Source: an uncultured Martelella sp.
GTDB lineage: Bacteria > Pseudomonadota > Alphaproteobacteria > Rhizobiales > Rhizobiaceae
Direction of reading: 5' to 3'
DNA: 64,000 nucleotides
NCBI GenBank assembly: GCA_963676545.2
Contig: CAXXRG010000002.1
Span: 535,990-599,989 of the forward strand
The position numbers and the translations under genes are program-made. The notes below the pieces were generated by a model, which saw only the letters and a list, made by a program, of their open reading frames with translations, had not been told where the DNA came from and ran no database searches. Positions 3,338 to 45,737 of the stretch are shown here, in pieces (position 1 is the first letter of the stretch; each line of letters opens with the position of its first letter).

Positions 3338-3367
3338 CGTCATGCTCGGGCTTGACCCGAGCATCCA
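3338..3367 (+). repeat. CGTC-tagged REP palindrome, copy 1 (forward)
   Basis: CGTCATGCTCGGGCTTGACCCGAGCATCCA; stem ATGCTCGGG/CCCGAGCAT. Confidence 0.92.
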
Positions 3368-3422
3368 GGCGATTCAAGTCATAGAATTCAGGATAATTTC
3401 TGCCGCCGGTTGTCGTGCGGCC

Positions 3423-3452
3423 TGGATCCTCGGGTCAAGCCCGAGGATGACC
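3423..3452 (-). repeat. CGTC-tagged REP, copy 2 (reverse; doublet with copy 1)
   Basis: TGGATCCTCGGGTCAAGCCCGAGGATGACC. Confidence 0.92.
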
Positions 3453-6784: not shown

Positions 6785-7956
6785 TTACGGCCTATGTTCT
6801 CCGTTCGCTCGACCGCAGGGTTTCGATTGCGATTGCCATACTTTTCGGCATCGCCCTGCTGGTGCCGGTGCTGAACCTCGTCATTCCTGCGGCAAGCCCG
6901 TTTCACCTGCCGACCTATCTGGTGTCGCTGTTCGGCAAATATCTCTGCTATGCGCTGCTGGCGCTCTCGCTCGATCTGGTCTGGGGTTTCTGCGGCATTC
7001 TCTCGCTCGGCCACGGCGCCTTCTTCGCGCTCGGCGGCTATGCCATGGGCATGTATCTGATGCGCCAGATCGGCCCGCGCGGCGTCTATGGCGATCCGAT
7101 CCTGCCGGACTTCATGGTCTTTCTGAACTATCAGGAGCTGCCGTGGTTCTGGCACGGCTTCGACATGTTCTGGTTCGCCATGCTGATGGTGCTGCTGGTG
7201 CCCGGCGCGCTCGCCTTCGCCTTCGGCTGGTTTGCCTTCCGGTCAAGGGTCAACGGCGTCTATCTCTCGATCATCACCCAGGCCATGACCTATGCGCTTC
7301 TGCTCGCCTTCTTCCGCAACGACATGGGGTTCGGCGGCAATAACGGCCTGACCGACTTCAAGGACATTCTCGGCTTTTCCGTGCAGGCCGATGGCACGCG
7401 CGCGGCTCTCTTTGCAGCCTCCGCCATCTTCCTTGCCATCGGTTTGTTCATCGCCTCGGCGATTGTCCGCTCCAAATCCGGCAAGGTGCTGGTCGGCGTG
7501 CGGGATGCCGAGAGCCGGGTGCGGTTTCTGGGCTACCGGGTGGAGAACTACAAGCTCTTCACCTTCGTCGTCTCGGCCATGATGGCGGGCGTTGCCGGTG
7601 CGCTCTACGTGCCGCAGGTCGGCATCATCAATCCGGGCGAATTCGCGCCGGCCAATTCCATCGAGGTCGTCATCTGGACGGCGGTCGGCGGGCGGGCAAC
7701 GCTGATCGGTCCGATCATCGGCGCGATCCTCGTCAATGGCGGCAAGACCATTTTCACCGGGCTTTTCCCAGCCTTCTGGCTGTTTGCGCTCGGCGGCCTG
7801 TTCGTCGCCGTCACCCTGTTCCTGCCCAAGGGCATTGTCGGCACGATCTCCGACCGGTTCAGAAAAAAGAGCAGTGACGCCGGCGCGCGCAATGAGCGTT
7901 CCGAGGAGGCTGAGGCCGGCATGGATGTCAACCCGAGCGAGGAGGGCGCACGATGA
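6781..7956 (+). CDS. urtC: Urea ABC transporter permease UrtC
   Basis: LDLVWGFCGILSLGHGAFFALGGY, GGNNGLTDFK motifs; ATGA overlap with urtB. Confidence 0.93.
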   Translation: MITAYVLRSLDRRVSIAIAILFGIALLVPVLNLVIPAASPFHLPTYLVSLFGKYLCYALLALSLDLVWGFCGILSLGHGAFFALGGYAMGMYLMRQIGPRGVYGDPILPDFMVFLNYQELPWFWHGFDMFWFAMLMVLLVPGALAFAFGWFAFRSRVNGVYLSIITQAMTYALLLAFFRNDMGFGGNNGLTDFKDILGFSVQADGTRAALFAASAIFLAIGLFIASAIVRSKSGKVLVGVRDAESRVRFLGYRVENYKLFTFVVSAMMAGVAGALYVPQVGIINPGEFAPANSIEVVIWTAVGGRATLIGPIIGAILVNGGKTIFTGLFPAFWLFALGGLFVAVTLFLPKGIVGTISDRFRKKSSDAGARNERSEEAEAGMDVNPSEEGAR

Positions 7957-8711
7957 GCCCGATGGAAAAACGCGCGAAAAGCCTGCTTTATCTCGACAAT
8001 GTCTCGGTGTCCTTCGATGGCTTCAAGGCGCTGAACGGCCTCTCCTTCGTCATCGAGCCCGGCGAGCTTCGCGCCGTCATCGGCCCGAACGGGGCCGGCA
8101 AGACGACGATGATGGACATCATCACCGGCAAGACGCGGCCCGATACGGGCGAGGTCTTCTTCTCCGATACGATCGACCTGACGCGCAAGGACGAGGCCGA
8201 CATCGCCCAGCTCGGCATCGGCCGCAAGTTCCAGAAGCCGACGGTCTTCGAAAGCCATACGGTGTGGGACAATCTGGAACTGGCGCTCAACCGCAGGCGC
8301 GGCGTGTTTTCCACGCTGTTCTACCGGCTGACGAGCGAGGACCGGACCCGCATCGAGGAAATCCTCGAAACGATCCGCATGAGCGCGCGCAGGCAAGAAC
8401 TTGCCGCCAACCTTTCCCACGGCCAGAAACAATGGCTGGAGATCGGCATGCTGCTGGCGCAGGAGCCGAAGCTTCTTTTGGTCGACGAACCGGTTGCCGG
8501 CATGACCGACGCGGAAACGGTGGAGACCGCGCGCCTCCTGCGCGAGATCGCCGAGACCCGCGCCGTCGTCGTCGTCGAGCACGACATGGGCTTCGTCCGC
8601 GACCTCGGCGTCAAGGTCACCTGCCTTGCCGAAGGCTCCGTGCTGGCCGAGGGCTCGATCGATTACGTATCGAACGACCCGAAGGTCATCGAGAACTATC
8701 TGGGGCGGTGA
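7953..8711 (+). CDS. urtD: Urea ABC transporter ATP-binding protein UrtD
   Basis: GPNGAGKTT Walker A, LSHGQKQWLEIG, LLLVDEP. Confidence 0.93.
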   Translation: MSPMEKRAKSLLYLDNVSVSFDGFKALNGLSFVIEPGELRAVIGPNGAGKTTMMDIITGKTRPDTGEVFFSDTIDLTRKDEADIAQLGIGRKFQKPTVFESHTVWDNLELALNRRRGVFSTLFYRLTSEDRTRIEEILETIRMSARRQELAANLSHGQKQWLEIGMLLAQEPKLLLVDEPVAGMTDAETVETARLLREIAETRAVVVVEHDMGFVRDLGVKVTCLAEGSVLAEGSIDYVSNDPKVIENYLGR

Positions 8712-8754
8712 GGAATGATGGCGCGCGATAAGCAGATGGCTGCGCAAGATCGCC

Positions 8755-8784
8755 TGGATCCTCGGGTCAAGCCTGAGGATGACG
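8755..8784 (-). repeat. CGTC-tagged REP, copy 3 (reverse)
   Basis: TGGATCCTCGGGTCAAGCCTGAGGATGACG. Confidence 0.92.
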
Positions 8785-8874
8785 CGGTTGGAAAGGGCAG
8801 TGCTGGAAAGACATTCTCACGATACCTGTCTTCCGCAGAGACCTCTGTTTCGGCGACGAAACCCCCTCCTCATG

Positions 8875-8904
8875 CGTCATCCTCGGGCTTGACCCGAGGA
8901 TCCA
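8875..8904 (+). repeat. CGTC-tagged REP, copy 4 (forward; 11 nt from GIY-YIG stop)
   Basis: CGTCATCCTCGGGCTTGACCCGAGGATCCA (consensus). Confidence 0.95.
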
Positions 8905-8915
8905 GGCCGCCACGT

Positions 8916-9200
8916 TCAGAGAAAGCGTTCATAAAGATCATCCCAGCCCGGATTGAGATTAGAAACAAGCGTGATCTTCCACGCCCGGTTCCAGCCTTTC
9001 AGCGCCTTCTCCCGCGCAATCGCACTGCCGATCTCGAAGTGTTCCTCATACCAGACGAGCCTGTTGCAGCCGTAGCGGCTGGTGAAGCCTTTGATCAGTC
9101 CTTCGCGGTGCTCGAAAATACGTCGTTCAAGATCGGAGGTTACGCCGATGTAGAGCGTGCCGTGCGGTCTGTTGGTAACGATGTAGACGTAACCGGCCAT
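8916..9200 (-). CDS. Stand-alone small GIY-YIG nuclease family protein (94 aa)
   Basis: GYVYIVTN...LYIGVTSDLERRIFEH...AIAREKALK...NPGWDDL: both Tyr motifs plus conserved Arg, His, Glu, Asn. Confidence 0.9.
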   Translation of the reverse strand: MAGYVYIVTNRPHGTLYIGVTSDLERRIFEHREGLIKGFTSRYGCNRLVWYEEHFEIGSAIAREKALKGWNRAWKITLVSNLNPGWDDLYERFL

Positions 9201-9219
9201 GGCGTTTTGCCGTGTTGCC

Positions 9220-9249
9220 TGGATCTTCGGGTCAAGCCCGAAGATGACA
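9220..9249 (-). repeat. CGTC-type REP, copy 5 (reverse; 19 nt before GIY-YIG ATG)
   Basis: TGGATCTTCGGGTCAAGCCCGAAGATGACA; compensated stem ATCTTCGGG/CCCGAAGAT. Confidence 0.92.
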
Positions 9250-9411
9250 CGGGCGGGGATGGCGCGGCAAGAGCGGCTGCGGCAGAGCGGGTGACATTCT
9301 CACTTACTGATGCGGGAATCTTGCAGCAGGGAGCCATAGTCCTGTTTGTGCTGTTTGCAAGTCTGTCTTTCGCAATGTCATCGGTTGAAGAAACGCGTTC
9401 CTCTCCCCGCG

Positions 9412-9441
9412 CGTCGTCCTCGGGCTTGACCCGAGGATCCA
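9412..9441 (+). repeat. CGTC-tagged REP, copy 6 (forward)
   Basis: CGTCGTCCTCGGGCTTGACCCGAGGATCCA. Confidence 0.92.
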
Positions 9442-9508
9442 GGCGACCTGCCGTCGCATCGGCCAGACCGCTCCGACCTCCTCACCCTTTCCAGAGAGAA
9501 CACTCGCC

Positions 9509-10204
9509 ATGCTGACCATCGATAACGTCAATCTTCACTATGGCGCGGCGCAGGCGCTGCGCGGTGTTTCGCTTTCCGCCGAGATGGGCAGGATCACCTG
9601 CGTGCTGGGGCGAAATGGCGTCGGCAAGTCCTCGCTGTTGCGCGCCGTCACCGGCCAGCATCCGACATCGGGCGGTTCCATCACCTTTCAGGGCGAGACG
9701 CTGGACGGGCTGGCGCCCTATCGCCGCGCCAAGCTGGGTGTTGGCTATGTGCCGCAGGGGCGCGAGATTTTTCCGCTGCTGACGGTCCGGGAAAATCTGG
9801 AGACCGGCTTTGCCCCGCTCAAATCGGCCGACAGGAACATTCCTGACGACATCTTCAGCCTGTTTCCGGTGCTGCAGTCCATGCTGTCGCGCCGGGGCGG
9901 CGATTTGTCGGGCGGCCAGCAGCAGCAGCTCGCCATCGGCCGCGCCATGGTGACCCGACCGAAGATTCTCGTCCTGGATGAGCCGACCGAGGGTATCCAG
10001 CCCTCGATCATCAAGGATATCGGCCGGGCGATCCGCTACCTGCGCGATTCAACCGGCATGGCCATTCTGCTCGTCGAGCAATATCTCGATTTCTGCCGCG
10101 AACTGGCCGATCAGGTCTATATCATGGACCGCGGTGAGATCGTGCATGAAGGCCCGGCCGAAACGCTGGATACGCCTGAAGCCCGCCGCCACCTGACGGT
10201 CTGA
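9509..10204 (+). CDS. urtE: Urea ABC transporter ATP-binding protein UrtE
   Basis: GRNGVGKS, YVPQGREIFP, LSGGQQQQLAIGRA, DEPTEGIQPSII. Confidence 0.94.
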   Translation: MLTIDNVNLHYGAAQALRGVSLSAEMGRITCVLGRNGVGKSSLLRAVTGQHPTSGGSITFQGETLDGLAPYRRAKLGVGYVPQGREIFPLLTVRENLETGFAPLKSADRNIPDDIFSLFPVLQSMLSRRGGDLSGGQQQQLAIGRAMVTRPKILVLDEPTEGIQPSIIKDIGRAIRYLRDSTGMAILLVEQYLDFCRELADQVYIMDRGEIVHEGPAETLDTPEARRHLTV

Positions 10205-21023: not shown

Positions 21024-21053
21024 CGTCACCCTCGGGCTTGTCCCGAGGGTCTA
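21024..21053 (+). repeat. CGTC-tagged REP, copy 7 (forward)
   Basis: CGTCACCCTCGGGCTTGTCCCGAGGGTCTA; compensated stem ACCCTCGGG/CCCGAGGGT, loop CTTGT. Confidence 0.88.
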
Positions 21054-21149
21054 AGCACGTACCAGCACGATTGGCGTTTCGGGTCAGAAAAGGTCACAAA
21101 AAACGGCCTTGCTGACTGACCATGGACACCGCTCGCGTGGAGAGGGGAT

Positions 21150-21179
21150 TGGATCCTCGGGACAAGCCCGAGGATGACG
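21150..21179 (-). repeat. CGTC-tagged REP, copy 8 (reverse; doublet with copy 7)
   Basis: TGGATCCTCGGGACAAGCCCGAGGATGACG; loop is the reverse complement of CTTGT. Confidence 0.92.
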
Positions 21180-45584: not shown

Positions 45585-45614
45585 CGTCATCCTCGGGCTT
45601 GACCCGAGGATCCA
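45585..45614 (+). repeat. CGTC-tagged REP, copy 10 (forward)
   Basis: CGTCATCCTCGGGCTTGACCCGAGGATCCA (consensus). Confidence 0.95.
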
Positions 45615-45707
45615 ATCACCTCTCTTTGCGATCGGCGTATCGGTCGCACCGCCATATTGCGCCGTCGAGCTCGAACAAACCCGCGTTGCTGCTGTGGTTT
45701 GCGGGGT

Positions 45708-45737
45708 TGGATCCTCGGGTCAAGCCCGAGGATGACG
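45708..45737 (-). repeat. CGTC-tagged REP, copy 11 (reverse; doublet with copy 10)
   Basis: TGGATCCTCGGGTCAAGCCCGAGGATGACG. Confidence 0.95.

Follow-up and report, generated by a model that had tools for sequence, protein, structure and literature searches.

In this uncultured Martelella genome, the 797-bp gap between urtD and urtE is filled by four CGTC-tagged REP hairpins and one minus-strand gene for a 94-aa GIY-YIG nuclease, hereafter ssn. The layout is REP-gene-REP with one outer REP partner on each side, so that the gap holds two hairpin-forming doublets. The features are listed below in coordinates of the window, that is, the whole stretch of 64,000 nucleotides that was analysed.

7953..8711, plus strand: urtD, urea ABC transporter ATPase, the host gene upstream (TIGR03411, 385 bits against a cut-off of 304)
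8752..8785, minus strand: outer REP, left doublet partner of the inner REP (CGTC tag at 8784..8781; one stem mismatch)
8786..8873, no strand: spacer A of the left doublet, alpha type, containing GACATTCTCAC and CTGTCTTCCGCA
8874..8907, plus strand: inner REP on the 3' side of the gene, 8 nt past the ssn stop codon, its CCA tail facing the gene
8916..9200, minus strand: ssn-like gene, 94-aa single-domain GIY-YIG nuclease (PF01541, E 5e-17)
9217..9248, minus strand: inner REP on the 5' side of the gene, 16 nt before the ssn ATG (TGTC tag; compensated stem ATCTTCGGG/CCCGAAGAT)
9249..9409, no strand: spacer A' of the right doublet, on the ssn upstream side, alpha type with about 72 extra nt
9410..9444, plus strand: outer REP of the right doublet (CGTC at 9412-9415)
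9509..10204, plus strand: urtE, urea ABC transporter ATPase, the host gene downstream (TIGR03410, 340 bits against a cut-off of 286)

The identity of the host genes is clear, as UrtD and UrtE both exceed the NCBIfam equivalog cut-offs, and urtA and urtC were found upstream of urtD. An original prediction, made from the letters of this stretch, had described four REPs between the two genes. All four lie where it placed them (8752-8785, 8874-8907, 9217-9248 and 9410-9444), every motif that it listed was recovered in place, and the nuclease gene is indeed antisense to urt (ORF 8916-9200 on the minus strand). Each REP spans 32-34 nt and consists of a CGTC or TGTC tag, a 9-bp stem beginning with AT, the loop CTTGA and the tail CCAGGC. 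The tags of the four copies read GCGTC, GCGTC, GTGTC and GCGTC, and the stem is AT(C)CTCGGG. The CCA tails of the inner REPs face the ssn gene, and their CGTC tags point outward.

Complementarity between REP arms is 94-97% among the four copies, with 97% for 8752-8785 versus 8874-8907. The arms of the outer REPs are prolonged to 50 nt at 86% complementarity (8747-8796 and 9400-9449), and these longer arms include the GATCGCC and GGCGACC that had been predicted to extend the inverted repeat. As single-stranded DNA, the entire left doublet folds into one long hairpin (z -10.9 relative to shuffles), and the entire right doublet does likewise (z -7.8). Folded singly as DNA, three of the four REPs reach z -2.7 to -3.4 and beat nearly all shuffles, whereas the outer REP with the stem mismatch (8752-8785) reaches only z -1.6, and 13 of 200 shuffles fold equally well. 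An Rfam search of the region returned chance-level matches only, and a scan of the region for sigma-70-like promoters revealed none, including for ssn. The terminator scan of the region found two terminator-like hairpins, no more than in shuffles. A weak terminator-like hairpin with a T-rich run lies at 9325-9346 (plus strand), in the urt sense direction, within the ~72-nt segment found only in spacer A'.

These repeats belong to a family that is abundant in the genome. Copies of the urt-locus REP number 70 at up to 3 mismatches, and tagged hairpins with a perfect stem number 183 genome-wide, compared with 27 in a reversed-genome control. The published SRM pattern of Ssn-associated repeats matches 91 times genome-wide versus 28-52 times in shuffles. 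In its strict form it fits one of the four locus REPs (the inner copy, at 8875-8905), and the other three are each one base off. We searched the whole genome, which is 99.88% complete, for a Y1/RAYT transposase (PF01797) and obtained no match. Three more gene-less REP doublets with outward tags lie in the window, at 3339-3451, 21025-21178 and 45586-45736; one is of a heterodimer family with 49-nt spacers and two are of a family with spacers of ~87-90 nt. In the commonest doublet family (for example C2:350090-350201 and C3:330705-330817), the 49-nt spacers start with CGCACGGCAAA, a beginning that resembles AACACGGCAAAACGCC, the 16-nt leader that separates the ssn ATG at the urt locus from the REP upstream of it. 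Judging from the two sequences, this likeness may reflect an origin by internal deletion.

The protein itself is small and consists of a single domain. PF01541 spans residues 3-75 of its 94 residues (E 5e-17), and there is no extra DNA-binding domain. A tblastn search detected only three ssn homologs in the genome, counting the urt copy; Y6, Y17 and E64 are invariant across the three, and REP doublets lie on both sides of all three. The subfamilies that bracket them have 27, 24 and 10 perfect-stem copies, hence all are multi-copy. Among PDB sequences, the nuclease has no better match than a marginal one, UPF0213 BH0048 (1ZG2, E 0.005), apart from a spurious WD40 hit. NCBIfam holds no model specific to it, and TIGR01453, the model for group I intron endonucleases, reaches 24 bits where the cut-off is 56, over residues 4-35 only.

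The second paralog (113 aa) splits sufB from sufC (L032:859-1583; G000:C3:1007859-1008582), a junction that again adjoins the gene of an ABC-type ATPase. It is flanked by two 150-bp doublets with homologous 86-nt spacers and REPs of a subfamily with the loop CTTGT, and the doublet tags point toward the gene, opposite to their orientation in the urt cassette. The third paralog (L031:886-1491; G000:C3:357385-357990) lies downstream of an MsbA-like ABC transporter gene, and its REP subfamily has a different, fully compensated stem, ATCCCGGC/GCCGGGAT. The ortholog of this third paralog in the congener G009 carries an in-frame TAA stop. At the sufB-sufC junction of another congener, G002 (L121:903-1349, minus strand), a tight REP-ssn-REP was observed with the outer partners absent; the 11 nt that follow its stop codon are identical to the end of the 86-nt doublet spacer. 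This shared end suggests that the suf cassette and the gene-less doublet derive one from the other.

The arrangement is that of the Ssn system first described in 2025 (Chenal et al. 2025, PMC11893778). The SsnA protein of N. meningitidis belongs to the cd10448 family and comprises, in 94 aa, a single GIY-YIG domain; it binds the hairpin repeat NTS (CGTCATTCCCGCGMAVGCGGGAATCYRG, encompassing dRS3) solely as ssDNA and cuts a few nt upstream of it. Neither dsDNA nor RNA is cut, the mutants Y6A, Y17A and E64A lose cleavage, and the enzyme modulates recombination in Neisseria (PMC11893778). Bacterial Ssn homologs are flanked by related motifs, termed SRM, the NTS-ssnA-NTS arrangement has been called IS-like, and the same study raised the hypothesis that Ssn mobilises the repeats (PMC11893778). 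Our locus shares the 94-aa single-domain GIY-YIG protein with Y6, Y17 and E64, and the inverted, multi-copy hairpin repeats that bracket the gene, with CGTC as the 5' tag and a C following the palindrome (PMC11893778); its REP is one compensated base pair apart from the published NTSvar (CGTCATACTCGGG..CCCGAGTATC). It differs in its Rhizobiaceae-like alphaproteobacterial host, its stem sequence and its position inside the urt operon. Here, moreover, each inner REP has an outer partner with which it forms a long-hairpin doublet, and the genome holds three paralogs with REP subfamilies of their own. The original prediction had treated the nuclease as a bystander; the gene is instead the centre of a REP-gene-REP unit, as in Ssn/SRM.

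Other known systems share parts of this architecture. Di Nocera et al. (2013, PMC3733652) classed dRS3 and alphaproteobacterial repeats as CGTC-tagged REPs that lack a dedicated transposase. Repeats of that superfamily have stems of 8-9 bp and loops of 4-5 nt; those of the families CGTC-3/4 share with ours the CGTC or TGTC tag, the AT at the start of a 9-bp stem, the 5-nt loop and the CCA tail, and they occur as dimers with conserved or variable spacers; unlike there, where no dedicated enzyme was assigned (PMC3733652), a nuclease gene lies between the repeats here and in PMC11893778. REPtrons, which comprise a RAYT gene, GTAG REPs and REPINs, likewise have inverted REPs on both sides of a small nuclease gene, doublets without the gene that form long hairpins, and one to few vertically inherited copies with cognate repeat subfamilies (PMC2817692, PMC3116915); they differ in combining an HUH-Y1 nuclease with the GTAG tag, where our locus has the GIY-YIG fold and the CGTC tag. 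GIY-YIG homing endonucleases of the I-TevI type differ from our 94-aa protein, which is without the C-terminal DNA-binding region and scores below the TIGR01453 cut-off. Rhizobium-specific intergenic mosaic elements (RIME) are paired large palindromes between genes of rhizobial operons; compared by description alone, their likeness to the locus doublets is only a lead. Judged by its sequence features, the locus is a clear new example of the Ssn gene-plus-repeat system and not a new kind of element.

The pairing of gene and repeats extends far beyond this genome. We scanned for homologs in one genome per species, which returned 80 loci with relatives, 77 of them scorable, from Rhizobiaceae, Phyllobacteriaceae, Sphingomonadaceae, Bradyrhizobium, Burkholderiales, Chloroflexi, Bacteroidota and Saccharimonadales. 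The two 400-bp flanks of each gene were then compared for a common repeat of at least 40 bits, with placements of the same geometry elsewhere within the same loci as the control. A common flank repeat was present at 48 of the 77 homolog loci versus 3 of 120 control placements, and the shared arms are CGTC-tagged hairpins. In many of these loci, 6-50 nt separate the upstream arm from the start of the protein match and 0-12 nt lie between the stop and the downstream arm, which is also the spacing here. NTS-consensus repeats bracket homologs with 54-62% identity; the sequences around the homologs of Undibacterium and a Chloroflexi MAG agree with the published NTS consensus (PMC11893778) at 27 of 28 positions. 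In 11 of the 77 scored loci, the gene lies between long direct repeats of 81-190 nt.

According to the original prediction, the spacer between paired REPs was a conserved part of the element that had been duplicated along with them as an R-spacer-F unit. Spacers A and A' are indeed related: GACATTCTCAC occurs exactly at 8810-8820 and 9293-9303, CTGTCTTYCGCA is found at 8826-8837 and 9363-9374, and their local alignment reaches z = 4.3, a value attained by 3 of 500 shuffles, which denotes a real but modest similarity. The surplus of A', given as roughly 50 nt, is about 72 nt (164 versus 92 nt, or 163 versus 88 nt between REP coordinates). The right spacer of G009 and the one spacer of G013 are likewise relatives of both (z 3.7-5.7 for these comparisons). 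The prediction further proposed a genome search for the spacer motif near REPs. GACATTCTCAC occurs exactly four times in the 4.36-Mb genome, close to the chance expectation, and neither of its two copies outside the locus is near a REP. The exact count of CTGTCTTCCGCA is also four, once at the urt locus, where its partner differs by one base; none of the copies outside the urt locus is near a REP. The spacers of two other same-orientation doublets in the genome are unrelated to A and A', and the left and right spacers at the urt site in G009, G011 and G004 bear no significant likeness to each other. Since the motifs occur at background frequency and are unlinked to REPs elsewhere, the element does not include the spacer as a conserved module. 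The relatedness of the two R-spacer-F units in this genome stands, and the notion of a conserved spacer falls. By our reading of PMC11893778, nicks are predicted ~3 nt 5' of each tag and hence within the spacer ends; as a speculation, such nicks could explain why REPs are uniform while spacers turn over.

We compared the urtD-urtE gap across 13 congeners and one genome of another family (G025). It measures 8 bp in the congener G003 and 12 bp in G025, which bears out the predicted insertion into an intact, tight operon. In G005 and G008, the gap is 225 bp long and free of REPs. The prediction had named a long REP-free gap in relatives, or spacer motifs at background frequency, as observations that would speak against it; the comparison of relatives thus yields both the short junctions that it foresaw and a REP-free gap that counts partly against it, as do the motif counts above. 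In four further congeners (G002, G006, G007 and G010; L007, L009, L010 and L006), a gap of ~255 bp holds a different palindromic doublet, ATCTCCCCC-CTTGA-GGGGGAGAT, with the stem length and loop of the urt REP and a different stem sequence. Two families of hairpin repeats have therefore settled at the urtD-urtE site. A single doublet occupies the gap in G001, G012 and G013, and the complete doublet-gene-doublet arrangement is found in four species, namely this genome, G004, G009 and G011. In a tree of the rpoB region, the empty and REP-free states form one clade whose genomes hold 0-3 copies of this REP, and the remaining states are intermixed, with the close sisters G001 and G006 differing from each other.

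The four ssn copies at the urt site are intact ORFs of 94 codons. Their nucleotide identity is 78-86% versus 81-93% for urtD/urtE, the genome pairs rank identically by the two measures, and dN/dS of ssn is 0.04-0.12 with dS near saturation, indicating strong purifying selection. Divergence in step with the flanking genes and a low dN/dS together argue that the insertion is old, vertically inherited and kept by selection. The left doublet of G009 aligns with the one doublet of G012 at z = 53, and the one doublet of G013 has the spacer type of this genome; such gene-less single doublets fit a loss of ssn by recombination between same-oriented REPs. In the genomes compared, ssn copies number 0-3 per genome. 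The complete genomes of G001, G012 and G013 have no ssn homologs and carry 52-92 REPs, 27-46% of which are perfect 28-mers, as in gene-bearing relatives. By the fraction of perfect copies, no REP decay was found in these ssn-less congeners. As they are as REP-rich as the ssn-bearing ones, REP upkeep does not visibly depend on ssn.

Taken together, we estimate a probability of roughly 80% that the region is an Ssn-type cassette, in which a nuclease gene is bracketed by inverted cognate CGTC-tagged REPs that form two REPIN-like doublets. Support for this reading includes the boxing of all three paralogs by REPs, each with its own multi-copy subfamily, the common flank repeats at 48 of 77 homolog loci and the lack of a RAYT in the genome. 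Counted against it are that only one of the four REPs fits the strict SRM pattern, that the reversed bracket of the second paralog makes the bracket non-uniform, that the ssn-less G001, G012 and G013 keep abundant REPs, and that ssn has no promoter-like site. By inference from SsnA, the protein encoded here would bind the REP hairpin in ssDNA only and nick a few nt 5' of the tag. The nicks would then fall just outside the REP-gene-REP unit, one per strand, within the two spacers. The comparative series suggests that the doublets act as substrates of recombination: exchange between same-oriented REPs would delete the gene in some lineages and leave single doublets behind, and gene conversion would keep the REPs alike as the spacers drift or undergo replacement.

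Several accounts of how such a unit arose and is maintained can be weighed against these data. The original one, in which a REP array entered the operon and grew by R-spacer-F duplication, with a functional spacer (a promoter or ncRNA) and the nuclease as an incidental passenger, appears very improbable. The collinear motifs of spacers A and A' (z = 4.3) and the empty junction of G003 agree with it, but the motifs are at background frequency and away from REPs elsewhere, other same-orientation doublets have unrelated spacers, the left and right spacers of G009, G011 and G004 are unlike, the region yielded neither an Rfam match above chance nor a promoter-like site, and the pairing of nuclease and REPs recurs in three paralogs and across phyla. 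The genome-wide motif counts and the congener spacer comparisons thus largely refute this account. A homing-type selfish gene, whose nuclease cuts REP sites and is copied in by repair, with the REPs as targets rather than cargo, would suit the direct repeats of 81-190 nt around 11 of 77 homologs and the existence of the urt-site doublet with or without the gene. We nevertheless judge it improbable, given that the published enzyme leaves dsDNA uncut (PMC11893778), that a 94-aa protein without homing-endonuclease DNA-binding domains scores 24 bits against the TIGR01453 cut-off of 56, and that ssn has diverged in step with its neighbours and shows no hint of a recent spread. The direct repeats are also compatible with Campbell-type integration, in which a circle carrying the gene and a doublet would enter a resident doublet; tandem duplication predicts the same.

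An autonomous, IS-like REP-ssn-REP element, with the nuclease as the transposase that also mobilises gene-less doublets and hence as the missing enzyme of CGTC REPs, is a tentative possibility that we hold to be on the unlikely side. In its architecture the unit is like an insertion sequence or a REPtron, the genome has no RAYT, each paralog has its own REP subfamily, and the sister genomes G001 and G006 differ at the urt site. CGTC REPs are without a dedicated transposase (PMC3733652), and the hypothesis was raised in PMC11893778. Suggestive only are the 49-nt doublet spacers that begin like the ssn leader; the REP-ssn-REP ends at the G002 sufB-sufC junction continue as the ends of 86-nt doublet spacers. 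These two likenesses are suggestive at most that gene-less doublets may be deletion derivatives of the cassette. Against mobility, the urt-site copy is old and vertical rather than recently inserted, genomes have just 0-3 copies, perfect REPs abound where ssn is missing, and the strand open to cleavage is not the same in the two arms, which sets them apart from IS200/IS605 ends. Strand transfer, moreover, is not a known activity of GIY-YIG nucleases. A domesticated host function is a stronger candidate, although still short of even odds: the nuclease would restrict or trim REP-bearing ssDNA during conjugation, transformation or at replication gaps and so modulate recombination, with the flanking REPs as its recognition sites. 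The function published for N. meningitidis (PMC11893778), the strong purifying selection and the fixed chromosomal position over species divergence favour this, yet the gene is dispensable in several congeners, and the account leaves unexplained why the gene is so consistently boxed by its own targets and why each paralog has a REP subfamily of its own.

Within the Ssn-type cassette reading, we lean slightly toward a long-lived, vertically inherited partnership of nuclease and repeat of the RAYT/REPIN kind, in which RAYTs are presumed to spread the REPINs. Its points are the REP subfamily of each paralog, the vertical persistence, the lack of a RAYT and the hints that gene-less doublets look like cassette ends. 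A host role in trimming REP-bearing ssDNA, as in Neisseria, is equally possible as such a RAYT-like partnership. A bolder version makes Ssn the partner that creates and spreads CGTC-tagged REP doublets, as a GIY-YIG analogue of RAYT/REPIN, such that doublet-gene-doublet cassettes would be long-lived vertical replicators and tag-proximal nicks would drive spacer replacement, doublet duplication and REP-mediated deletion; we regard it as doubtful.

The five states of one junction within one genus (empty, REP-free, different doublet, single doublet and doublet-nuclease-doublet) constitute a natural experiment. Between two of its cistrons, a transporter operon that looks essential accommodates an antisense insertion of 800 bp with four strong hairpins. 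The nuclease is kept intact under selection here, yet it has been lost in several relatives without visible REP decay. This occupancy series bears on a question left by PMC3733652 and PMC11893778, namely whether Ssn nucleases are the mobilisers of CGTC REPs or a domesticated host function, and it names strains in which the two can be tested. The main value of the locus is thus a well-resolved comparative series on whether Ssn nucleases mobilise their repeats.
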